The notes beneath the pieces were generated by a model, which did no database searches, was not told the origin of the DNA, and saw only the letters and a list, made by a program, of their open reading frames with translations. A DNA stretch of 64,000 nt from Candidatus Zhuqueibacterota bacterium (GTDB lineage: Bacteria > Zhuqueibacterota > Zhuqueibacteria > Thermofontimicrobiales > Thermofontimicrobiaceae). Shown piece by piece: positions 52,264 to 63,306 of this stretch. Within the stretch, counting starts at the first letter, position 1; each line of letters opens with the position of its first letter. The stretch covers positions 256,001-320,000 of the forward strand of contig JBMOPW010000014.1 of the NCBI GenBank assembly GCA_049322915.1. The letters run 5' to 3'. The translations under genes and the position numbers were made by a program.

Positions 52264-53235
52264 GTGGTCATGGCATTTACTAAAAAATATAATCGCGCGA
52301 TTCTTTCTCTGGTCGTGGCTTTGGCAATTCTGGGGGTGACTGGGAGTTCATGGGCAGGATTCATCGATACCGGCCAGGGCGCTCGCCCGGTGGCTATGGG
52401 TCGCGCCTTCACCGCTGTCTCGGATGATATTCACGCCATGTTCTATAACCCGGCCGGCATGGCCCAGCTCAAAGGACTTGCTGCGACAACCATGTACGCC
52501 CGGCTGTATCCCGGCGTCTCCGATGTCGACCTGAATTACGGATTGCTGGCCGCGGCCGTGCCGCTGAGCTTCCTGGGCAAAATCGGCGTGGGCGTCACTA
52601 ATCTGAGCCTGGATATGTACAAAGAGAACATGTTTTACATCAGTTACGGCCGTAGCCTTCCGTTCAATGTGTCCGTGGGCGGGAGTTTCAAAATGCTGCG
52701 CTGGTCCGCCGATGGCGATACCGATCCCATCACCGGCGCCAGGGACAACAACTATGCCTACAATGGATTTTCCATCGACGCCGGGGTGATGTATCAGGTG
52801 CCGACGTCCCTGGTGAGCCGATTTCTGAAAAGCGGCCGGCTCCAATTGGGGATGATGCTGAAAGACGTCAACCAGCCCAGCATTGCTGAAAATGGCTCGG
52901 ACAGCGGCAAGCTGCCCCTGGGCATGGCGTTCGGGGTTGCCTATCTCTCCGAGAAATTGATCCTGGCCGGCGATTTCAGCAAGGTTGATGAATTCAGCAA
53001 ACTGCACGTGGGCGCCGAATACGTGCTGCAGCGATATGCGTTTGGCGCGTGGAAAACCGCCTTTACCGTGCGCGGCGGCGGCATCCACGTGATGAGCGAC
53101 GCCGAGGGCGGCGAAGCCGATTTTGGATTTGGCCTCATGGTCCGCGCCCTGCAAATCGATTACGCGTACGTCTATCCCATGGCGCTCAAAAACGTGGACG
53201 GCAGCCACAAGATTTCGTTGATGTTTTCGTTTTAG
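52264..53235 (+). CDS. PorV/PorQ-like (FadL-related) outer-membrane beta-barrel
   Basis: GQGARPVAMGRAFTAVSDDIHAMFYNPAG; amphipathic strands; IDYAY..SHKISLMFSF with C-terminal Phe. Confidence 0.8.
   Translation: MVMAFTKKYNRAILSLVVALAILGVTGSSWAGFIDTGQGARPVAMGRAFTAVSDDIHAMFYNPAGMAQLKGLAATTMYARLYPGVSDVDLNYGLLAAAVPLSFLGKIGVGVTNLSLDMYKENMFYISYGRSLPFNVSVGGSFKMLRWSADGDTDPITGARDNNYAYNGFSIDAGVMYQVPTSLVSRFLKSGRLQLGMMLKDVNQPSIAENGSDSGKLPLGMAFGVAYLSEKLILAGDFSKVDEFSKLHVGAEYVLQRYAFGAWKTAFTVRGGGIHVMSDAEGGEADFGFGLMVRALQIDYAYVYPMALKNVDGSHKISLMFSF
53177..53233 (+). repeat. Direct repeat copy 1 (3' end of the porV-like gene)
   Basis: 57 bp, 55/57 identical to 54438-54494. Confidence 0.95.
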
Positions 53236-53306
53236 GGATAATTACCCAATGCGCATTCACTTCATGCCATTGAGTCCTGTAATATTATTTCAATGAACGA
53301 TAAGTT

Positions 53307-53371
53307 TATGGATAAAATATGGGTATTTTATGGATACAAAATGTAGATAACTTATGGATAGAATATGGATG
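53307..53371 (+). repeat. Phased TATGGATA direct repeats upstream of and overlapping the fic start
   Basis: Copies at 53307, 53318, 53329, 53342, 53353, 53364 (spacing 11, 11, 13, 11, 11). Confidence 0.8.
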
Positions 53372-54429
53372 CATTCGATAAAAAACTACACTTTGGATTT
53401 CGAACGAATCAAGAAATTTTAAAACTCATTTCAGAGATTGATTTGTTCAGGGGAAAGTGGGAGCACCTTGAGAGTCAAAATATCAGTATCTTAAAAGATC
53501 TCAGAAATTTTGCTACAATACAAAGTATCGGTTCTTCAACCAGGATAGAAGGAGCAACACTTTCGGATAAAGAGATAGAAGAATTAATTTCCGATTTAAA
53601 AATTAAAAAGCTTGAGACTCGTGATGAACAGGAAGTAATCGGATATTACGATGCTCTGGAATTAATCCTTGAAAGCAATGAAGCTATTCATCTTGCTGAA
53701 AATTATATTCTGCAATTACATTCTGTATTGCTCAAATACTCAACAAAGGACAGCGGGCAAGAAGGAGCATATAAAAAGCTAACAAACAAAGTTGTGGCGA
53801 ATTATCCGGATGGGACACAAAAAATAATTTTTAAGACGACCGAACCCTATTTAGTTCAGAAAGAAATGAATGAATTACTCGATTGGACAAATAGGAATTT
53901 TGAAAGTCAGGAAAACCATCCACTCTTGATATTGGGTTTATTTATATACGAATTTTTATCAATCCATCCTTTTCATGATGGAAATGGAAGATTGTCCAGA
54001 TTATTAACAACGTTACTTTTAATAAAATTGGATTATGGTTTTGTTAAATACATTTCATTTGAACACTTGATTGAGAATCGAAAAGAACAGTATTATGCAG
54101 CTTTGATGGAATGTCAAAAAAATCGAAATACCGAAAATGAACATCTGGATAAATGGATACTATTTTTCCTGAATTCATTAAAGCTGCTTACAGTAAAATT
54201 GACTATAAAACTTGGCGACACAGAAGGTAAACATATTTATATAAATGACAGGCAACAGAGAATTAAATCATTTATATTAGAAAATCAACCATGTAAAATT
54301 GGAGATATAGATAAATACTTTTCTGAAATCTCGATAAATACGTTAAAGAAAGATTTGCAATTCCTGGTAAAAAATAAAATCATCACCAAACATGGTGAAA
54401 GAAAATCCACAATATATTCAATTCCATAG
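53365..54429 (+). CDS. fic: Fic-family protein (class II, with inhibitory helix) and C-terminal winged HTH
   Basis: HPFHDGNGRLSR canonical motif; STRIEG inhibitory motif; NTLKKDLQFLV..GERKSTIY wHTH; AT-rich. Confidence 0.92.
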   Translation: MDAFDKKLHFGFRTNQEILKLISEIDLFRGKWEHLESQNISILKDLRNFATIQSIGSSTRIEGATLSDKEIEELISDLKIKKLETRDEQEVIGYYDALELILESNEAIHLAENYILQLHSVLLKYSTKDSGQEGAYKKLTNKVVANYPDGTQKIIFKTTEPYLVQKEMNELLDWTNRNFESQENHPLLILGLFIYEFLSIHPFHDGNGRLSRLLTTLLLIKLDYGFVKYISFEHLIENRKEQYYAALMECQKNRNTENEHLDKWILFFLNSLKLLTVKLTIKLGDTEGKHIYINDRQQRIKSFILENQPCKIGDIDKYFSEISINTLKKDLQFLVKNKIITKHGERKSTIYSIP

Positions 54430-54437
54430 TGTAGATG

Positions 54438-54494
54438 CCATGGCGCTCAAAAACGTGGACGGCAGTCACAAGATTTCTTTGATGTTTTCGTTTT
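54438..54494 (+). repeat. Direct repeat copy 2 (duplicated porV-like 3' end)
   Basis: Encodes the identical peptide MALKNVDGSHKISLMFSF followed by TGA. Confidence 0.95.
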
Positions 54495-54683
54495 GAGCGG
54501 TCGGGAAAATTCCTATATATAGGAATAAGTTAATTTATGATGGAGCCTAATAGTATTATGTTGGGCTTCTTTAATAGTTTTTATTCGGTTGTCAACCTTT
54601 TATATAGAAACAAGATTAGATAGTAGGATGAATAGGATATATTTACTATCAGATGCCTATCAATTTTTTTTTGGAGCAAGAAT

Positions 54684-55136
54684 GTGGAAATAAAAGAACT
54701 ATTGGATGTGGGAAATTTTTTAGCTTCAGTTGCAGCTGCTATTGGTTTGATTCTTGTTGCTTGGCAAACGCGTGAAACTCAAAAGACAAGACAATTGCAA
54801 GCAACTATAGCAATTTTTGATGATCTAGGGTCGGAAGATAGCAGAACCGCTCGTAAATATGTATATACTAAACTGTCTGACTTTGTTGAAAATTATAAAG
54901 ATGTTGATAGATATAATGCAGAAAAAGTTATCGCATCATTAAATCGTGCAGCCCTGTTTTGTAATACAAAACACGTAAACAAGGAAATTATTTTTGCTAT
55001 GTATGGGGAAGCTTTCGTAAAATGTTGGGACAAGCTAAGTAGTTATATTATAGAAAAAAGAAAGATATCAGGTGCACAATATGCTAGCGAGTTTGAAAAT
55101 GCAGCAAAGAATGCTTCGAAGTACTGGAAGCTATGA
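54684..55136 (+). CDS. Cassette protein, DUF4760-like (N-terminal TM helix)
   Basis: TM ..GLILVAWQ; C-terminal MYGEAFVKCWDKLSSYIIEKR..YASEFE pattern. Confidence 0.6.
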   Translation: MEIKELLDVGNFLASVAAAIGLILVAWQTRETQKTRQLQATIAIFDDLGSEDSRTARKYVYTKLSDFVENYKDVDRYNAEKVIASLNRAALFCNTKHVNKEIIFAMYGEAFVKCWDKLSSYIIEKRKISGAQYASEFENAAKNASKYWKL

Positions 55137-55521
55137 TAGTCATTTATATTTCGCTTAGGAATCAATGAATTACATGATAGTAACCAAACTTATTACATAA
55201 AAAAGTTGTAAATTACTAGCTCCATAGTGTATAACTTACTTAAAAAAAATATATTTTGTGAAACGACTTATTTGATTTTGTAGAAAAAGGAGTTTTATTA
55301 ATTCCACAAACATCAATGGAACAAATCATTTGCAATATAAAAAATGAGGTTGAAATTTTGAGTTCGAGATAGCAACAATATTTGATATACAAATAAACCT
55401 GTTATTTAGATATGCTAAAGTAAAAGGATTTAAAACATCTTATGATATTAAGAGACATTAATTAAACAGTAAAACTTTACCTTGTCAGTAAATGCTAATA
55501 ATAGCAATTATAAAGTCAATT

Positions 55522-55657
55522 GCCCAACAAAAGCATGCAGCCGAACCTCGAGCACTGTTTGAATTTAATTTAGTTAAGTGCATTATTTATATTTTCGAAT
55601 ATACAGAAATGTTCGGTGGGTATTAGCCCTCGGGTCGGCTGATGATCATCGTTGGGC
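55522..55657 (+). other. attC site 1 (intact)
   Basis: R'' GCCCAAC ... CATGCAGCCGA pairs with TCGGCTGATG (extrahelical G) ... R' GTTGGGC. Confidence 0.88.
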
Positions 55658-55689
55658 TGACGGCAGACGGAACTGGAGGAGTTCAGAAG

Positions 55690-57495
55690 ATGATTGGGTC
55701 GATTGAAGAGCTTCTGACCTGCGCGCGCAACGGTACATTGCTTGAGCACAGAAGCGGCAACGTCGAATTGAAGCGGTCCTGGGACCAAGAGAATGGGAAG
55801 AAGCTCTCTGCCTTTGCCAACAGGCTGACCTCTATAGTGCAGTGGATGTGCATCGGGATTGCGGACGACGGGTCGTTGTGCGGCCGGACCGAAGCATGGG
55901 CCAAAAGCACCGAGGAGGCCGTTTCCCAGCACCTGAATCAGTACCTCGACCCGCAGGCTACGTGTGAGTTCATCTCATGTCACGAGATCGACGGCCAATG
56001 GCTAGTCGTGATCAAGTTTTGCTCACCCGGCAGTGTGGTCTACTGGAACAATACTGCGTACAAGGGAGCTGGAACGACCATCAAAAGCATGACTCCCGAG
56101 GAGGTCATGCAACTGACCGTTGCTCTTCCCGGACTCACCGATTACTCAGCACAGCGGTGGGAAGGTATCCGTGATGAGGGGAAAGCGGGGGACTTCGTCC
56201 ATGCCGTAGCAGCCAGACGCGAAGGCACAACACTAGAATCGATCACATCACTCACCATCGGCGAAGCGCTGGAGAGAATCGGTATTCGAGGCACGAATAC
56301 GGAGCGCGTTCTTTTCGGAGACATCCAGTACCGCATCGTCAAGTACGACGCAGCCGGAACGCCCCTGTCGAACGAGACACGTGTTGGCTTGCAGGATCTC
56401 CTCACTCCCCAGCTCTTCCTCGAAGTCCAGGAGTGGTCGAGGCAGACACTGGGCATTCGACAGCCCCCCTATCCCGAGCGAGCCCTCAGGGAAGGACTTG
56501 CGAATGCGGTCGCACATGCAGCGTATTATGAGGCAGGCGGGGACATCATAGTCGAGTTGTACCCGGACCGTCTGAGCATCAGCAATCTCTGTCAGAAAGA
56601 GTCCCGGTACTTCGCCAACAAGTGGTTCTCTCGTGCACACAAGACAATGAACCGCGTCCTTATGGAAGCGCTCCGTCTGGCCGGCAGCGTTGATGAGCTG
56701 GGCCGTGGAAAGACTCTCATTTTTGCCGACTCACTCTGCAACGGAAAGCGACCACCGGAGGTCATCGTTGAAAAGGGAGGACGGTACGACCGCTGGCGCC
56801 TCATCATCCACGGGGGCGATCAGGATCGGCTGCATCTTCGTGTCTACGATAGGCTGCGGAGGATGTACCCTGACGAGCACAAGGCACTGATTGCTCACGC
56901 GTTGGTGCTTTGGCGTGGGCAGACAGTGTCTCAGATTCGCCAATACGTCGACGGCGAGTCATCAAGGTCTTTCGCCGAGGTGCTCGCCGACTTGCGGGGG
57001 CCGATATTCTACTATCAGAAGCGCGACCAGATAATCCTCCGCAGGTGGGTCTCCGTGCTTCTTGGCGAAGGCAAGGACTCGAAAAAGCTGTCTGCCGCCG
57101 AGGAGGAAGACCTTTTTGAGTATGTTCGGAAGTTCCACACGGAGTTCCACAGGGGGTACATCACTCCAAAGGAGCTACGTGAAGCGGCGGATATGGGGCA
57201 TACTCCTTCCGAGGTTGTTCTAGGTTCCCAGATACTGCGAAAGTGGACAGAAGAGGGAAAGGTCGAGAGGGTCAAGAAGGGCCTCTACAAACTCATTCCG
57301 CCCCAAACGTCCGTCGTGCCGGAGGACCTTTTCGAAATGCTCCTAAGGGAATTCAACACTGGCACGGAGCGGAAGCCGGATGCCCTACAGACGGTCGGAG
57401 GCGACGCCGGAACCCGCGCCGCGGACGGCGCGGCTCCCGAAGCGCTCCTCAACCGCGCCGTTAACCCTAGACCAGAGATAGACCATTCATCATAG
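55690..57495 (+). CDS. AlbA_2 (Schlafen-like) domain + HATPase_c_4 (RecG C-terminal-like) + wHTH protein
   Basis: RBS GGAGGAG then ATG 55690; NVELKRSW..LSAFAN..IGIADDG; YPERALREGLANAVAH; VDELGRG; GC-rich relative to neighbours. Confidence 0.8.
   Translation: MIGSIEELLTCARNGTLLEHRSGNVELKRSWDQENGKKLSAFANRLTSIVQWMCIGIADDGSLCGRTEAWAKSTEEAVSQHLNQYLDPQATCEFISCHEIDGQWLVVIKFCSPGSVVYWNNTAYKGAGTTIKSMTPEEVMQLTVALPGLTDYSAQRWEGIRDEGKAGDFVHAVAARREGTTLESITSLTIGEALERIGIRGTNTERVLFGDIQYRIVKYDAAGTPLSNETRVGLQDLLTPQLFLEVQEWSRQTLGIRQPPYPERALREGLANAVAHAAYYEAGGDIIVELYPDRLSISNLCQKESRYFANKWFSRAHKTMNRVLMEALRLAGSVDELGRGKTLIFADSLCNGKRPPEVIVEKGGRYDRWRLIIHGGDQDRLHLRVYDRLRRMYPDEHKALIAHALVLWRGQTVSQIRQYVDGESSRSFAEVLADLRGPIFYYQKRDQIILRRWVSVLLGEGKDSKKLSAAEEEDLFEYVRKFHTEFHRGYITPKELREAADMGHTPSEVVLGSQILRKWTEEGKVERVKKGLYKLIPPQTSVVPEDLFEMLLREFNTGTERKPDALQTVGGDAGTRAADGAAPEALLNRAVNPRPEIDHSS
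57382..57466 (+). other. attC site 2 (R'' degenerate)
   Basis: GCCCTAC ... CCGCGCCG-cgga-CGGCGCGG central hairpin ... GTTAACC. Confidence 0.7.
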
Positions 57496-57508
57496 ATAAG
57501 GGGAGAAC

Positions 57509-57889
57509 ATGAGTGAAAAACACGAAGAATGGTTGAAGCAAGCTGATTATGACATGGGTACGGCGGATGCCATGTTTCAGAGCGGTCGGTATTTCTATGC
57601 CGTATTCATGTGTCATTTATCCATTGAGAAGTCGTTAAAGGGTCTGTATGCAGAAGTATTGGAGGAAATCCCGCCTAAAACTCATAACCTCCTATACCTT
57701 CTGGATAAAATTGGCAAGAGACCCGAACAGGAGTTGGAAAAATTTATGATCAGGCTGAATACTGCGAGTGTCGCCACTCGCTATCCAGATGATTTAGCGA
57801 AAATCCAGTCGGCCTACACCGAAGAAATCACCAAAAGTATGATCACCAAAAGCAAGGAGGTGTTGGCATGGGTCAAGACACAGTTTTAA
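57509..57889 (+). CDS. HEPN-domain protein (HEPN/MNT pair)
   Basis: WLKQADYD, FMCHLSIEKSLKG, PPKTHNL, TRYPD. Confidence 0.88.
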   Translation: MSEKHEEWLKQADYDMGTADAMFQSGRYFYAVFMCHLSIEKSLKGLYAEVLEEIPPKTHNLLYLLDKIGKRPEQELEKFMIRLNTASVATRYPDDLAKIQSAYTEEITKSMITKSKEVLAWVKTQF

Positions 57890-58179
57890 GTATAGTCCAC
57901 AAATTCAAACAGGCCCTGGAAGCCACTATTCGAGTGGAACAATTGATTTTATTTGGTTCCCATGCAGGCGGAACTGCTCGTGAGGATAGCGATATTGACC
58001 TGGTTGTCATTTCACCGAGTTTTTCAGGGAAAACGTATTGGGAACGCATAGATATTCTCTCTGAGGCTATTTATAAAGTGTTTGCACCAATCGAAGCCTC
58101 AGCATTTACTCCGGACGAATGGAAATCCGGGAAATCGTTGCTCTCGGACTATGCCAAAAATGGTGTATTGATATTATGA
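57868..58179 (+). CDS. Minimal nucleotidyltransferase (MNT)
   Basis: ILFGSHAGGTAREDSDIDLVVIS (GS-x10-DxD); overlaps the HEPN stop. Confidence 0.88.
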   Translation: MGQDTVLSIVHKFKQALEATIRVEQLILFGSHAGGTAREDSDIDLVVISPSFSGKTYWERIDILSEAIYKVFAPIEASAFTPDEWKSGKSLLSDYAKNGVLIL

Positions 58180-58404
58180 GATGATGCTCTCATGCCGGTT
58201 AAGGGATTCTTATCAATACAAAGGGTCAGGATTCCTACCCCCCTTGAAAATCGGTTATGTTCGATTTTCGGCAGAGTATTGTCACATAATTGGTTCCGAA
58301 TAACATCTTTGGTGGCTAAAAGAATGATAAGGGGTGAAGCTAAAAAAAGTAGGTCAAGTAGGATAGTATAAAGATAGTTGAAAGAAGTAAACCAAAAAAA
58401 TTAA

Positions 58405-58535
58405 TCCTAACCGCACTGTGAGAATCCGAACGGGTGGATGCCCGCATCGGTTTAAAATTTAATTTTGACGTTTAGTGCCATGCAGGTTTCGGTAGGAGAG
58501 CATCACGAACCCCGCAGTAAACAACCGAGTTATGC
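58405..58535 (+). other. attC site 3 (degenerate; right arm recognisable)
   Basis: Right arm CCGCAGTAAACAACCGA-GTTATGC; left arm TCCTAAC..ACTGTG pairs only partly. Confidence 0.45.
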
Positions 58536-58866
58536 GCAATTAGGCAGGTGAAAAAGCAGCATCAACATAGAGAGAACAGCAGTTGATGATTCAGTATAAA
58601 TGATTGAATTGAAAAAATCAATCGCTATTTCAAAAGGGCATAAACGAAGAAATAATAAGAAGTAGGTGGAATGAGTATTTTGACAATTAAAACATCTGCC
58701 GCGAAAAAGGGACCTGACTCAAAAGCAAACTTTTGTATGAATTGGTTTGGGGATAAACTTCAGAATTCAAAAGTTAAGCATGAATTCTTTGACATATCGA
58801 AAATAAAATATTTTCTGATTATAGAATTTTAAGAGTGAATGAAAAATCGGTAGGCATAAAGTCAGG

Positions 58867-58993
58867 GCATAGCATCTTGCTGCCCCAGATAAAAACGCCG
58901 ATTCTTTTAATCAGTTATGGCGGTAACAAAAAGTTCAGTTATTCGAATCGGCTGTCTCTGATGCGTTTTCAACCGGTGAGCACGTTGTTAGAT
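58867..58993 (+). other. attC site 4 (R'' degenerate)
   Basis: GCATAGC-ATCTTGCTGCCCCAGATAAAAACG pairs with CGTTTTCAACCGGTGAGCACGTT-GTTAGAT; inner GCCGATTC/GAATCGGC. Confidence 0.75.
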
Positions 58994-59018
58994 GTTCAAA
59001 AAATTAGGTAGGAATTTA

Positions 59019-59834
59019 ATGTCTAAAAGTGGTGAATTATTAGTAGCAATTATGAATAATCAGATTGATTTTTCAATTGCTCGTGATAGACATTGGTATC
59101 GAATTCCAGTTGACAGTGTGAGTAAGTGGTTAAAAAATAAATGGCCACCTCAATGGTTATCATTCTATCAGACAAAAGCTTTTCAAGAAAAAGCACATTC
59201 CATTCAGTACTATTCTCGAGTATTAAAAATAAACATAGCAAAAAGATGGCAGCTTTTTCCAGAACGACCAATAGAAAAAAATAGTGATAAACTTTATTAC
59301 CAATTACTAATCGAGCCGCTAAAAAAATTGTCAAAACCAATATATAGTAGACGTTGGCGTCGAATTGTTTTTATTCCAACAACATGGGAAAAATTTAAAG
59401 TGGCGATGGAGATCAATGATCTTTATGAAGGGAGCCCATTAGAAGATAAATTATGGGCGGCATTAAAGATGCTCGATATTCCCGCAGAACGCCAAGAGTA
59501 CATAAAAGTAAGAAATAAAAACTATTTTCTTGATTTTGCTATTTACTGTGAAAAAGGGAAATTAAATATAGAGACAGATGGTGATAAGTGGCATCACACG
59601 CCGGAGAAGGCACCGCAAGATAATTTAAGAAACAACGACTTAGTGACATCTGGCTGGCAAGTATTACGTTTTACAGGTAATCAAATCCATGATCAAATGT
59701 CTAAATATTGCATACCTAAAATAGTTGATGAAATAAATAATTTAGGCGGAGTAGAGATCGATAAAAGTACTTATAGACGAATAGACTTAGGACTACCTGG
59801 TACCACCTTCCAACAAAGCTTTTTTGATAAGTAA
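59019..59834 (+). CDS. DUF559 (Vsr-like PD-(D/E)xK endonuclease) domain protein with N-terminal extension
   Basis: SPLEDKLW, YFLDFAI, IETDGDKWH, DNLRNNDL..GWQVLRF; N-terminal WYRIP domain. Confidence 0.85.
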   Translation: MSKSGELLVAIMNNQIDFSIARDRHWYRIPVDSVSKWLKNKWPPQWLSFYQTKAFQEKAHSIQYYSRVLKINIAKRWQLFPERPIEKNSDKLYYQLLIEPLKKLSKPIYSRRWRRIVFIPTTWEKFKVAMEINDLYEGSPLEDKLWAALKMLDIPAERQEYIKVRNKNYFLDFAIYCEKGKLNIETDGDKWHHTPEKAPQDNLRNNDLVTSGWQVLRFTGNQIHDQMSKYCIPKIVDEINNLGGVEIDKSTYRRIDLGLPGTTFQQSFFDK

Positions 59835-59861
59835 ATAGTATATTTTTAAAAATAAATAATC

Positions 59862-59992
59862 ATCTATCAATCGGCTCACGTTGACCGCAGGGGGTGTGCG
59901 TCAATTTAGTTTTAACGTTCCACATAGAGTCTTTTAGTTAATCAAAGTCCAGTGCCCTGCAAGCTTGCGGCGACTTTGCCGTGCCGTTATGT
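59862..59992 (+). other. attC site 5 (R'' degenerate)
   Basis: ATCTATC-AATCGGCTCACGTTGACCGCAG pairs with TTGCGGCGACTTTGCCGTGCC-GTTATGT. Confidence 0.75.
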
Positions 59993-60005
59993 GAGAAAAA
60001 TTAAT

Positions 60006-60260
60006 ATGAGTAAATATGAACAATTAATACAACAAATACTCGGTGGTAGAGCCGACGCAAATATTAACTTTAATGATTTATGCAACCTTTTGCTCCGATG
60101 TGGATTTGAGATGAGAGTGTGTGGAAGTCATCATATTTTCAGAAAAGCAGGGATTGAAGAGAAAATAAATTTACAAAAAGATGGCAATAAAGCAAAGCCC
60201 TACCAGGTGAAACAAGTAAGAAATATCATTTTAAAATATAAACTCGGAGGTCAAGACTAA
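60006..60260 (+). CDS. hicA: HicA-family toxin
   Basis: INFNDL..LL..GF..GSHHIF..INLQ..AKPYQVKQV; ATG at 60006 lies downstream of attC5. Confidence 0.88.
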   Translation: MSKYEQLIQQILGGRADANINFNDLCNLLLRCGFEMRVCGSHHIFRKAGIEEKINLQKDGNKAKPYQVKQVRNIILKYKLGGQD

Positions 60261-60472
60261 TGGAACGGTACGAAATAATAATTTATTGGAGTGAAGAGGA
60301 CAATGTATATATAGCAGAAGTTCCTGAACTTCCCGGATGTATGGCACATGGGGAAAGTTATGAATCAGCATTAAAAAACGTTAAAGAAGCCATCCAACTT
60401 TGGATAAAAACAGCAGAGGAGTTTAACGATTTTATTCCTGAACCAAAGGGTCGTCGTCTTGTTTACGCGTAA
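60260..60472 (+). CDS. hicB: HicB-family antitoxin (short, no DNA-binding domain)
   Basis: YIAEVPELPGCMAHGESYESALKNVKEAIQLW..IPEP; TAATG coupling to hicA. Confidence 0.9.
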   Translation: MERYEIIIYWSEEDNVYIAEVPELPGCMAHGESYESALKNVKEAIQLWIKTAEEFNDFIPEPKGRRLVYA

Positions 60473-60485
60473 CATTATAAAAAAA

Positions 60486-60557
60486 ACCTTACCAATCGCT
60501 GTCCTAGATTGCCCTTTCGTTAGCGCTACAGGGCAACCTGTTAGCTTGTTTTTGTAT
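60486..60557 (+). other. attC site 6 (both R boxes degenerate)
   Basis: ACCTTAC-CAATCGCTGTCCTAGATTGCCCT pairs with AGGGCAACCTGTTAGCTTGTT-TTTGTAT. Confidence 0.5.
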
Positions 60558-60672
60558 TGCCTGAATGTTTGAAATGAAAATAGAAAAAAATTATAATCAA
60601 TTTTCCTCGGGCCAAAAGCCCAGTATAAAATTAATATGAATATGTATTGGCCTTCGTTGGGAGTATTAACCC

Positions 60673-63306
60673 ATGCGTAATTTAAAGTCTTTGTCTGTTT
60701 TCAGTGTACTTGTTTTCTCTGTGCTCATGTTGCCGCAGTATATCTTTCCTCAGTTCATCACCGCGCCCGGGGCTTCGGATGAAAAGTATAACAACTATTC
60801 TGAGGAAGGGTATAAAAACTATTCCCAGGAATTTTTGACGTTGAAGCGATACGATGACTTCGGAAATTTTCTGTTGGAAGGGTTGGATATTTTTTCCATG
60901 GCCCGCCAGAATCCGGCCAACGCCGATGACCTCATCAAGTATAAATATTACACCAACTGGTTCGAGAACCTGGTCGTGGCCAAAGACACGTACAAAGGAT
61001 TCTCCACCAGCTTCATCATCGGCGATGCGATTCGGACCAAGTTCACGTCGCTGACCCTGGAGTTGGCCCGGTTGAACGGGATCCGCTGGGACGGCAAAAC
61101 TGAGAAGAACCAGTTCTCGGTGATTTATTCCCGGTTTTCTGATCCGATTTATATGCCGCTGCGCAGCACCACGACGGTCGAGCGGGCGTCTGCGCCGCAT
61201 TTGTGGAACCGCTATCTGTTCGGCGGCCATTGGGAAACCGAGATCGGCGATGTGCTGAAATTCGGCGCGACCTATGTGAATATTCATCAGACAAAGAGCA
61301 AGGAAGGTTCGGAAGACGCATCGATCAAAGGCGAAGTGACCGAATGCCGCCCGGAAGTGCTGTACCTGAAATTCACCGATGATTCCCCGGAAGATGGATT
61401 CGGGACGAAGCTGTACAGTCGACCGAAAATTTACATTAACGGCCAGTTGGTCAATATGGCGCCGATGAATGAAACAGCATATCCGCTGGAAGCCAGTGGA
61501 ACAGGCAGCTTTGAACTGATGATCCCCATTTCCACAGAAATCACCTCGATTCAATCGATGCAAATCGCCCTGGTAGTTGCTAATGATTATAAAATTTACG
61601 GCGCGCACGAGTATTATGAAAGTCAGGTTGACCTGACCATGTCCAGGACCAATTATCAGCTTCTGGCTCAGGCGAATGGCAATGTGAAGGATGAATCCAA
61701 TAAAAAATTGGAAGTGATCGACTACAGTCTCACGACCGGCCGATCCATTTACGGCGTTAATTTCAGCGCGAATCTGTTCGGATTCCGGATCAACGGCGAG
61801 TACAACACCAATGTCCGCCATGCCAAATTCCCGGTGCTCATCGGTGATCGGTTCGAAAAAAAGAGCAATGCCTATTTTCTGCAGATGAAGCGAAACCTCG
61901 GCCCGTTGACATTTGGCGGGGAGTATTTCAAAATCGATCCGGAGTACCTGACTAACCTGTCCACGTTCAGCCGGGAGCGCGGCACCCTGGAGGTGGAGAC
62001 CAGCAGCGCCAGCGCTGTGTACGATTCCGGCGGCGTGTACGACATGCTGGTGGATGACAATGACGATAATGACCGGTACCCGGACGGGACTCTGGCTTAC
62101 CGCGGGAGCGCACTGGACCCTGTCTATGAAGAAAATCCCGAGGAAGTGTTCAGCACAACAGATATTCGTCCGGACGCGGGCATTTTCCCCGGCCTCGATG
62201 AAAACAAGGACGGCATTCCGGACGACGATCAGAATAGCAATGGCACGCCGGATTACCATGAACCATTTATGATGTTCTACCGCGACCCGCCCCGTTTCGA
62301 TTATGGAGACGATTGGAATAACAACGACGTGATTGACGTGCGAGAAAATGACCAGTTGCCTGACCATGTCTACAATCGCGATCTGAAAGGCTCTCATCTG
62401 TTCGTGGGCTATCAGGTCTGGCGCGGATTTCATATTACCGGCGGCTACTTGCGCAACGAGCAGATTGCTGCCGGTGGCCGCAATCAAATCAAATATGGTA
62501 AAATCGATTATGATTTGTTCATGCCGAAGTTGGCGCAAATTAAAGTCTATCATGTCACCAAGGATGTGCAGGACGACATTCCCGATCCGACCTATCAATT
62601 CGATATCACCGAATTGGGAGTGAATTTCAATAGTCCGAAGTACATGCAGGATGAGCTGAGCATGCGCAACTCCATGGTTTATACCACATTTCTCGGCACG
62701 AAATATCTTCAGATCCCCAATTTGAATATTGAGAATAATGTGAAATACGTGCTCAACTCTCAGCGGCGGATTGAGCAATGGTCCAGCGATGAAAATCAGA
62801 TCGTCCTTGACCAGGACAAGGGGCAGGTGAATTACTGGGGCGTCGTGAATAAAATCGATTACCAGTTCAAACTGTCAGAGAAACTCCTGTTGATTCCCCA
62901 GTTCAAACATCGCTGGGAGATTAAATATAAAGACTACGAACCGGCCATGCACGACACTCTGTACCACAATCAATGGTACATGCCGATCATTCGGCTGGAT
63001 TATTTTTTCACGCCCAAGACCGTCATTCGCATGGGCTTTCAGGGGTTCTCGTTCAAGGCGATCAATGAAAATCTCAACGATGGTGACATATTTGTCTATC
63101 GTTACCGGGATAAGCTCAATCCGGTCAACAGCACCAATGACCAGATTTTCATGATCATGGCCACGAATGCATCGGATTACAACGGGTATAAACTGAAATT
63201 CAATATCGGACTCCAAAATATAAAGCGCACCTATATCAGCGAACAGGCTGCGTACAAGAATAAAAGCTATTTCAGATTTTTTGTGCGAGTTCTGGCAGGG
63301 TGGTAA
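60673..63306 (+). CDS. Large probable outer-membrane protein with Asp-rich Ca-binding-like loops
   Basis: Signal peptide; amphipathic strands; C-terminal FRFFVRVLAGW; LVDDNDDNDRYPD, DENKDGIPDDDQNSNGTPD, DWNNNDVID. Confidence 0.7.
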   Translation: MRNLKSLSVFSVLVFSVLMLPQYIFPQFITAPGASDEKYNNYSEEGYKNYSQEFLTLKRYDDFGNFLLEGLDIFSMARQNPANADDLIKYKYYTNWFENLVVAKDTYKGFSTSFIIGDAIRTKFTSLTLELARLNGIRWDGKTEKNQFSVIYSRFSDPIYMPLRSTTTVERASAPHLWNRYLFGGHWETEIGDVLKFGATYVNIHQTKSKEGSEDASIKGEVTECRPEVLYLKFTDDSPEDGFGTKLYSRPKIYINGQLVNMAPMNETAYPLEASGTGSFELMIPISTEITSIQSMQIALVVANDYKIYGAHEYYESQVDLTMSRTNYQLLAQANGNVKDESNKKLEVIDYSLTTGRSIYGVNFSANLFGFRINGEYNTNVRHAKFPVLIGDRFEKKSNAYFLQMKRNLGPLTFGGEYFKIDPEYLTNLSTFSRERGTLEVETSSASAVYDSGGVYDMLVDDNDDNDRYPDGTLAYRGSALDPVYEENPEEVFSTTDIRPDAGIFPGLDENKDGIPDDDQNSNGTPDYHEPFMMFYRDPPRFDYGDDWNNNDVIDVRENDQLPDHVYNRDLKGSHLFVGYQVWRGFHITGGYLRNEQIAAGGRNQIKYGKIDYDLFMPKLAQIKVYHVTKDVQDDIPDPTYQFDITELGVNFNSPKYMQDELSMRNSMVYTTFLGTKYLQIPNLNIENNVKYVLNSQRRIEQWSSDENQIVLDQDKGQVNYWGVVNKIDYQFKLSEKLLLIPQFKHRWEIKYKDYEPAMHDTLYHNQWYMPIIRLDYFFTPKTVIRMGFQGFSFKAINENLNDGDIFVYRYRDKLNPVNSTNDQIFMIMATNASDYNGYKLKFNIGLQNIKRTYISEQAAYKNKSYFRFFVRVLAGW

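Follow-up and report, generated by a model that had tools for sequence, protein, structure and literature searches.

How does a row of integron gene cassettes come to lie inside a host operon with no integrase gene beside it? Such arrays (CALINs) are already known and common. The array considered here lies in a 64,000-nucleotide stretch of DNA from a Candidatus Zhuqueibacterota genome (the window, meaning the whole stretch analysed), where a reading made from the sequence alone had seen six attC-like sites among toxin-antitoxin and defence-like genes and proposed that cassettes had collected at a secondary site. We consider it likely that the locus is a decayed integron cassette array headed by a probable attI, without an adjoining intI, and that one attC has been split at G/TT (the stroke marks the crossover) by the stump of an element encoding three tyrosine recombinases, called the trio element in the following (Table 1).

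Table 1 Features of the cassette array and its flanks (window positions).
Feature	Position	Strand	Remarks
Upstream flank, host gene for a PorV/PorP-like beta-barrel protein in a type IX secretion-like operon	52264..53235	+	NCBIfam PorV_fam, Pfam PorP_SprF
60-bp direct repeat, copy 1 (3' end of PorV-like gene)	53174..53233	+	95% identity to copy 2
Fic gene between the repeats	53365..54429	+	Pfam Fic; PADLOC SoFic 137.6 bits
60-bp direct repeat, copy 2	54435..54494	+	Stop context as in same-genus genome
16-bp palindrome; clusters of this type precede attI in related co-oriented integrons	54510..54525	.	
Likely attI core, crossover G54560/TT	54545..54566	+	35 nt after palindrome
Cassette 1, DUF4760 gene 54684-55136	54561..55651	+	Border match 7/7
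attC A, canonical, sole model-scored site	55522..55657	+	R1, R2, fold
Cassette 2, GC 0.57	55652..57460	+	Schlafen AlbA_2 / HATPase_c_4 / HTH protein from 55690
attC B, near-canonical hairpin, R'' GCCCTAC	57382..57466	+	Four boxes, fold
Cassette 3, HEPN 57509-57889 and MNT 57868-58179	57461..58203	+	Possible R'' remnant at 58197
attC C, left arm decayed, split after G58507	58386..58507	+	Homology to intact attCs
Left-end stump of trio element	58508..58645	+	Full length 3209 bp elsewhere
DUF4160/DUF2442 gene-pair fragment (broken cassette)	58643..58700	+	
attC D, decayed	58867..58993	+	72% identical to L112 site, R1 28.1 bits
Cassette with DUF559 nuclease-like gene 59019-59834	58988..59986	+	Border match 6/7
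attC E, decayed	59862..59992	+	72% identical to L115 site, R1 32.8 bits
Cassette with hicA 60006-60260 and hicB 60260-60472	59987..60485	+	
attC F, weak	60486..60558	+	R'', L'', L' present; letters vary in run X2
Host 877-aa gene, downstream flank	60673..63306	+	Abuts PorV-like gene in G010 and G017

The earlier placement of the array inside a secretion-related operon is borne out by both flanks. The upstream gene scores 89.6 bits against NCBIfam PorV_fam (cut-off 90), and in two of the three relatives holding the downstream gene it stands with that gene without the array between them; in these empty-site relatives the whole segment is absent. A same-genus genome carries other accessory genes at the locus, and no attC was detected there. 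The cassettes differ in GC content (0.30-0.57, against 0.49-0.53 in the flanks) and their attCs belong to mixed families, as had been noticed from the letters. About ten other attC occurrences, lone or in small clusters, lie within operons of this genome. Several attCs sit at contig ends. Note that the assembly is 96% complete, comprises 45 contigs and contains N gaps, and an intI may be unassembled.

All six positions named beforehand hold the 7-mers given for them, and one of them, attC A, is a canonical site. It scores 31.7 bits (E 1.2e-4) with covariance model R1 and 42.6 bits with R2, both trained on other attC sites and R1 on other genomes only, and its bottom strand folds with a z of -2.67; the sequence-only reading would have fallen had such a model scored none of the sites, this one included. 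The full set of R'', L'', L' and R' boxes, extrahelical bases and bottom-strand hairpin is found in A, partly in B and not in C to F. In the near-canonical attC B the four boxes are complete and the bottom strand folds with a z of -2.13. Neither model matched any of sites B to F, and homologue searches with B and F gave chance matches only. AttC C is 76-82% identical to intact attCs at three other loci (L098, L113, L117), homologues which the models do score; the site had been placed at 58405 and is indeed present, but wrongly delimited, being cut by the element end that follows G58507. AttC D and E are 70-73% identical to relatives' sites scored by R1 (28.1 and 32.8 bits); their own scores in a narrow search are 4.3 and 4.8 bits, and their folds are no better than those of shuffles (z -0.68 and -0.97). 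In attC F, which is weak, R' is unrecognisable. The count is thus one of six by covariance model, and four of six when decayed homologues of scored sites are included. The strict count, a single site, counts against a cluster, and six working attCs are not what is present, five being decayed or interrupted. A hand-written attC grammar that recovered the attCs of class 1 integrons gave 21.8 for A, 18.2 for B, 19.6 for D and 13.8 for E, values by which decay along the array is not strictly ordered; at low threshold this grammar has many background matches within the window, and across the genome its matches stand out from shuffles only from a score of 20 upward (16 real versus 1-5 shuffled).

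The cassette array is genuine but mostly decayed. In four cassettes the four bases after GTT agree with R'' (GGGC, GGGC, AACC, AGAT), for which the joint chance is about 1e-6 on pooled frequencies, and in a fifth (ATGT/ACCT) three of four agree, as is expected for integrated circles. A further claimed match, TTATGC/GCATAGC, is spurious, TTATGC being part of the end of the trio element; the supposed cassette is a transposon end. The possible R'' remnant at 58197 has no fold (z +0.44). With CALINs the locus shares co-oriented cassettes, mixed attC families, the lack of an intI nearby and, if decayed homologues are counted, at least two attC sites on one strand less than 4 kb apart; it differs in that one site still scores, that an attI has likely been kept and that one attC is split by the trio element.

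Nothing in the cargo (toxin-antitoxin pairs, Fic and a Schlafen-domain gene) is unusual for integrons. HicA/HicB, HEPN/MNT, DUF559 and Schlafen-domain genes are present, and 'defence-like' refers to domain names only: no cassette gene had a strong PADLOC match, PADLOC reporting SoFic for the Fic gene, which lies outside the array, weak PDC matches for the MNT and DUF559 genes, and nothing for five others. The reading frame of cassette 2 continues through attC B to 57495. Used as a query, its protein matched nothing in the 166 other genomes of the phylum, and a solved structural relative was not found; Schlafen-HisKinase-HTH appears among the architectures listed in PMC13056530.

The statement that the window holds no intI proved correct and extends to the genome, since TIGR02249, PF00589, tblastn and a six-frame profile of 38 IntI sequences all failed to find an IntI in either. 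The best TIGR02249 match in the genome reaches 79 bits against a cut-off of 265, and PF00589 detects two Xer-like genes and no IntI. No intI remnant is present at the locus, and no IntI was found in the same-genus genome. Among the 167 genomes of the phylum, 71 encode an IntI above the cut-off.

What, then, received the cassettes? Based on sequence comparison, the head of the array is probably an orphan attI and not the secondary site originally suggested, because in relatives the arrangement of palindrome, 35 nt and G/TT follows IntI genes that read in the same direction. Among 13 palindrome-cluster loci, some of which were retrieved by their similarity to the window's palindrome, a GTT follows the last palindrome after 34-36 nt in ten and in one orientation only. 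A full IntI lies upstream in the same orientation at five of the 13, and an IntI fragment at two more. A TAAT..TATG/TT core is common to the window head and to sites downstream of IntI genes in relatives, and the first cassette agrees with its R'' at 7/7 positions in L132, L246 and L156 and at 6/7 in L113. Only 5 IntI loci out of 39 show the layout, and contig ends truncate many of the 39. The window holds one palindrome, not a cluster, and a lone palindrome is a weak sign: a GTT lies at that distance in 3 of 52 such cases, the window included. Different cassettes follow the core in two related sequence runs: X2 has, at the same locus, one palindrome more, the core in homologous form and other DNA after it; a 261-nt contig of X1 combines additional palindromes with this core and the start of another cassette. 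Runs X3 and X4 yielded nothing. An attI is recognised by a GTT crossover beside an intI gene; at this locus no intI adjoins the crossover, and the same layout stands beside IntI in five relatives. A search for attI upstream of intI yielded little, co-orientation being frequent among these integrons, and a search of viral contigs did not reveal the attI core. In the co-oriented integrons of Treponema (PMC3607928) and archaea (PMC9668308), intI likewise points at attI and the cassettes, an orientation shared by the relatives; the passages drawn on here make no mention of a palindrome cluster 34-36 nt before G/TT, and at our locus intI is missing. Two other interpretations were dropped, namely that the palindrome is a regulator box used across the genome (which has three occurrences of its core) and that the head is dif-like (the spacer is 5 instead of the 6 of the dif consensus, and the segment is absent from empty-site relatives).

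In principle, the cassettes could also have entered without any attI, the first one hitting a GTT of the host's intergenic sequence (attG) and the others being added there or at its attCs, with the palindrome a chance or host feature. IntI can insert cassettes at any GWT (10.1101/2022.09.11.507474), the other attC clusters inside operons of this genome fit such insertion, and so does the missing intI trace. Nevertheless, we regard this course as unlikely: palindrome, spacing and core are those found downstream of real IntI genes, the full palindrome occurs once in the genome, and the empty-site relatives lack the entire segment. The SALIN/attG insertions described in the same source share with our locus cassettes in a host operon far from an integrase and the G/TT joint; they differ in that a host GWT devoid of att architecture is used, whereas the head seen here resembles an integron-linked attI. 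Still less probable is a working remote array, shuffled to this day by an integron whose intI sits in an assembly gap. The 45 contigs with their N gaps, the attCs at contig ends, the intact cassette 1 and the change of cassettes behind the head in X1 and X2 would suit it, but four kinds of search yielded no IntI fragment, the same-genus genome is free of IntI, five of six sites are decayed and, a weak point as it concerns contigs only, no excision joint was seen. The probable orphan attI would make the locus a testable case of one route to a CALIN, loss of intI with retention of attI, and the palindrome layout offers a sequence signature for attI in a phylum where this site is usually unrecognisable.

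The interruption of attC C leads to a second mobile component, of which the window holds only an end. Elsewhere, two full copies measure 3209 bp with ends related by inversion, and three tyrosine recombinases of 298, 323 and 330 aa with catalytic motifs are encoded (full copies L134, L137, L140); the genes are separated by gaps of 2 and 18 bp without overlap, and each protein has at most one N-terminal domain match. The left end is present in 20 of 167 phylum genomes. After duplicates were merged (41 to 40 junctions), a G precedes 38 of the 40 left ends, and TTA follows 25 of 26 right ends. Removal of three junctions with less than 100 nt upstream left 37 for a register test, in which 22 have an attC in exact register before the element, versus 8/503 shifted and 1/370 shuffled controls; the other 15, including that of the window (11.5), fall below the attC threshold, and some insertions lie at sites without a full attC. 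The path of run X1, possibly the source run, over 58545-58607 passes short repeat pieces, and the length of the stump depends on the assembly.

We tentatively propose, with slightly less than even confidence, that the trio family is a widespread and dedicated integron parasite that inserts by its own enzymes, through one-strand exchange, at the G/TT bond used by IntI and thereby cuts, freezes and remodels arrays, and that in this phylum the palindrome-marked attI outlives its integrase and acts as a free-standing landing pad to which IntI is supplied in trans. The recombinases might instead only excise the element, IntI then recombining the circle into attC as an attI- or attG-type partner. 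The joint has only its first G in common with the target, this G being the sole requirement for IntI (PMC2811028), and the host phylum is rich in IntI. Yet the element possesses inverted ends and three recombinases of its own with catalytic motifs, a 6-base footprint and one-strand exchange are known from strand-biased elements without IntI (PMC10214605), and insertions occur where no full attC exists; we hold insertion by IntI to be rather doubtful.

Several known systems resemble the trio element in part. According to the accounts cited, RIT elements (PMC3414803, PMC8138268, PMC10214605) likewise have three tandem tyrosine recombinases with motifs, about 3.2-3.5 kb, terminal inverted repeats and multiple copies, but the trio lacks their ~410-aa protein with two core-binding domains (RitA) and their gene overlaps of 4-8 bp, has no close plasmid relative (no plasmid match for the third protein at E 1e-30; best match of the first 28.7%) and targets attC. 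Group IIC-attC introns and IS1111-attC elements also home to attC with genes opposite to the cassettes; as described in PMC7923331 and PMC3001079, their insertion, driven by a retroelement or an IS transposase, is at R'' or close to the 5' end, whereas the trio element occupies the R' crossover and encodes tyrosine recombinases. Strand-biased circularizing elements and Tn554, as presented in PMC10214605, also combine tyrosine recombinases with target specificity and a one-sided footprint of 6 bases; the trio differs in gene set, in a footprint constant across genomes and in its attC target. A published description of an attC-targeting recombinase trio was not found. With the trio, the introns and insertion sequences known to home to attC would be joined by a class based on tyrosine recombinases. 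The trio also has defined ends, footprint and target for a recombinase-trio element, a type whose mobility is called untested in the literature consulted.

The following order of events may account for the locus. A co-oriented integron platform (intI, a small accessory gene, the palindrome cluster, 35 nt and attI) would have settled after the PorV-like gene and then lost intI, and cassettes would have been added singly at G54560/TT by IntI that the lost gene or a passing integron supplied. The first cassette would be the newest and would keep the sole intact attC, older attCs having drifted while their genes stayed open. The trio element would have entered attC C, likely from a circular form, through exchange of one strand at IntI's own crossover bond, so that 6 bases of the target remained on its left and a constant 6-base footprint on its right. 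A later deletion would have taken away the body and right end of the element together with the beginning of the next cassette.

The Fic gene upstream of the head may have arrived separately, through a crossover by which 60 bp at the end of the host gene were doubled. Copy 2 of the repeat is likely the original end of the PorV-like gene, since its stop context agrees with that in the same-genus genome. No att site accompanies the Fic gene at this locus; in relatives, a Fic gene directly follows an attC (contexts L081 and L082).

Arrays of this kind are known, and this one is in decay; what the analysis adds is a likely attI without an integrase gene beside it, together with its signature, and another, broken copy of an attC-targeting mobile element with three tyrosine recombinases, referred to as the trio. 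The sequence-only reading, a cassette array without intI collected at a secondary site, was partly confirmed as an observation and partly supported in its interpretation. The absence of intI, reported for the window, extends to the rest of the source genome as assembled: no match to TIGR02249 exceeded 79 bits (cut-off 265), PF00589 picked out just two genes, one XerC-like and one XerD-like, and nothing else came up with tblastn or with a profile built on 38 related IntI sequences and run on all six frames. Across the phylum, IntI scored above the cut-off in 71 of 167 genomes; none did so in G001, a relative from the same genus.

Features in and around the array (positions without a contig prefix are window positions)
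Feature	Position	Remark
Window	G000:C14:256001-320000	source genome G000
PorV/PorP-like gene	52264-53235	upstream flank of array region
Fic gene and flanking 60-bp copies of the upstream gene's 3' end	53174-54494	
16-bp palindrome	54510-54525	35 nt ahead of G54560|TT
Core of likely attI	54545-54566	
attC candidate A	55522-55657	
attC candidate B	57382-57466	
attC candidate C	58386-58507	
Trio left-end stump	58508-58645	
attC candidate D	58867-58993	
attC candidate E	59862-59992	
attC candidate F	60486-60558	
877-aa gene	60673-63306	downstream flank of array region
Further attC clusters in source genome	C5, C7, C12, C14:332468, C14:539137, C19, C28, C32, C36	

Two covariance models were applied to the six attC candidates. 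The training set of R1 was 10 attCs from outside the source genome, taken from class 1 integrons, a cyanobacterial plasmid and phylum relatives; that of R2 was 25 sites, all outside the window, with the pairing checked. Site A was recognized by both (R1, 31.7 bits, E 1.2e-4; R2, 42.6 bits, E 5.3e-7), while sites B to F matched neither; the claim of attCs, which had been tied to an attC model scoring at least one of the sites, thus survives, but through site A alone. On bottom-strand folding, A and B gave z values of -2.67 and -2.13, and none of five other stretches tested was better than -1.31. Judged by sequence likeness, C, D and E are attCs by descent, because they align with 70-82% identity to sites in relatives and R1 scores these homologues (28.1 bits for D, 32.8 and 21.5 for E, 27.3 and 39.3 for C, with two more C homologues at just 13.6 and 14.8). 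No homologues of B and F were found. Letter changes in a related strain (sequencing run X2) seem to shift F closer to the usual pattern. In each of four cassettes, all four variable bases agree with the cassette's own R'', for which the joint chance is about 1e-6 with pooled frequencies, and the mixed GC of the cassettes was borne out (0.30 to 0.57). Between a possible R'' remnant and attC C lie about 180 bp (58204-58385) that contain two small hairpins and for which homologues were sought but not found. Elsewhere the source genome contains about ten lone or small attC clusters, some within transport operons.

The proposal of a secondary site probably does not hold for the head of the array, which is attI-like in its palindrome, the 35-nt spacing, the G|TT and a core shared with IntI-linked loci. 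The palindrome occurs once in the source genome. Among all loci compared, clusters of at least two such palindromes were found at 13, several of them retrieved by palindrome likeness and not by spacing; GTT follows the last palindrome by 34-36 nt in 10 of the 13, in a single orientation only. A full IntI lies upstream in the same orientation at five of the 13 loci and an IntI fragment at two more, and their cores can be aligned with that of the window. Behind these cores, the first cassette agrees with its own R'' at 7/7 positions in three loci and at 6/7 in one. Conversely, the layout was found at 5 of 39 IntI loci, many of which are truncated by contig ends. In run X2, the same locus, recognizable by the Fic end and the repeat, carries one extra palindrome copy and a homologous core, and the 237 letters behind the core do not resemble cassette 1. 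In run X1, possibly the source of the assembly, a contig of 261 nt (depth 45 versus 82) joins extra palindromes and the window's core to a cassette start known from contigs C19 and C4 of the source genome. We infer that the head is an attI remaining after loss of intI, which is among the four routes to CALINs given by Cury et al. Co-oriented integrons are known in Treponema (PMC3607928) and in archaea (PMC9668308). An attI marked by palindromes of the present type was not described in the mostly open-access literature searched.

Between intI and the palindrome cluster there is often a gene of 115-136 aa, whose product is a candidate for binding the palindromes. This conserved gene is found directly 3' of intI in co-oriented integrons of the phylum (loci L034, L040, L041, L256, L063 and L033). 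Beside an assembly gap, at G000:C14:509645-509743, lies the C-terminal part of such a small gene as trails intI in relatives, possibly a second platform relic.

In attC C, L' (58495-58501) is followed by a 5-nt spacer and G58507 and then, where TT is expected, by a sequence recurring in other genomes. This is the left end of the trio, whose recombinases (298, 323 and 330 aa) are encoded in tandem and read toward that end. TTATGC at 58530, taken previously as a cassette border, falls within it. Two full copies give a length of 3209 bp, with ends related by inversion and a constant 6-base tail on the right end. G precedes 38 of 40 distinct left junctions, and TTA follows 25 of 26 right junctions. 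An attC hairpin lies in exact register at 22 of the 37 left junctions with enough flank, compared with 8/503 shifted registers and 1/370 shuffles. Of 167 phylum genomes, 20 carry the left end and 11 carry the right end. For the third recombinase, 1218 of 8000 scored candidates matched at E 1e-60, possibly including distant tyrosine recombinases; plasmids gave no match at E 1e-30. Of the left end, about 138 bp remain in the window, where they are joined to part of a DUF4160/DUF2442 pair.

Upon insertion, six target bases would remain on the left and the constant six bases would be placed on the right, a pattern resembling the one-strand exchange of strand-biased elements (PMC10214605). Joint and target have one base in common, the G, which IntI also needs (PMC2811028). 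The insertion may be carried out by the trio or by IntI. RIT elements are alike in layout (PMC3414803, PMC8138268), yet the trio was not classed with them, because it lacks a RitA with two core-binding domains and genes overlapping by 4-8 bp. Elements homing to attC are already known, namely group IIC-attC introns and IS1111-attC (PMC7923331, PMC3001079). An attC-targeting trio was not described in the mostly open-access literature searched, and target lists for RIT elements in Ricker et al. 2013, other subscription papers or supplements may affect how new it is.

A TA-rich cassette run in the source genome (G000:C36:218163-221729, L073) contains one left end of the trio and three copies of its right end. 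Further trio fragments lie at C29:65550 and C16:19689-19872, namely a right end and part of the N-terminal region of the first recombinase. The cassette shared by G000:C19:91234-92724 and C4:163220 has its own attC, and in run X1 it also lies behind the attI-like head and ahead of a trio end. Its gene presumably resembles an IS91-type transposase.

The cargo of the array comprises DUF4760, a Schlafen AlbA_2/HATPase_c_4/HTH protein, HEPN and MNT, DUF559, and HicA and HicB; PADLOC gave no strong match within the array. Fusion of Schlafen to kinase-like and HTH domains, as predicted for the protein of cassette 2, is one of the common layouts in a study of anti-phage Schlafens (PMC13056530). The cassette-2 gene (55690-57495) reads across attC B and on into the cassette behind it; the three closest homologues have 588 aa, more than the 564 aa encoded ahead of R''. 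The Fic gene upstream of the array directly follows an attC in two relatives, but in the window it is bracketed by two 60-bp copies of the host gene's 3' end. These copies are one of 16 pairs of direct repeats, 35-200 bp long, that enclose low-GC DNA in the source genome.

The 877-aa gene is present in three of 40 relatives (G010, G017 and G001) and directly adjoins the PorV/PorP-like gene in G010 and G017. In G001, 3.6 kb of other genes separate the two, encoding GMT-wHTH, DUF5131 and what resembles a HEPN/MNT pair; no attC was found in this stretch. Within the genus, the gap between the two host genes may long have served as a hotspot. In G001 (L011, contig C1) the different accessory genes begin at a core-like string of weak likeness, right behind the same stop codon and with the G replaced by A.
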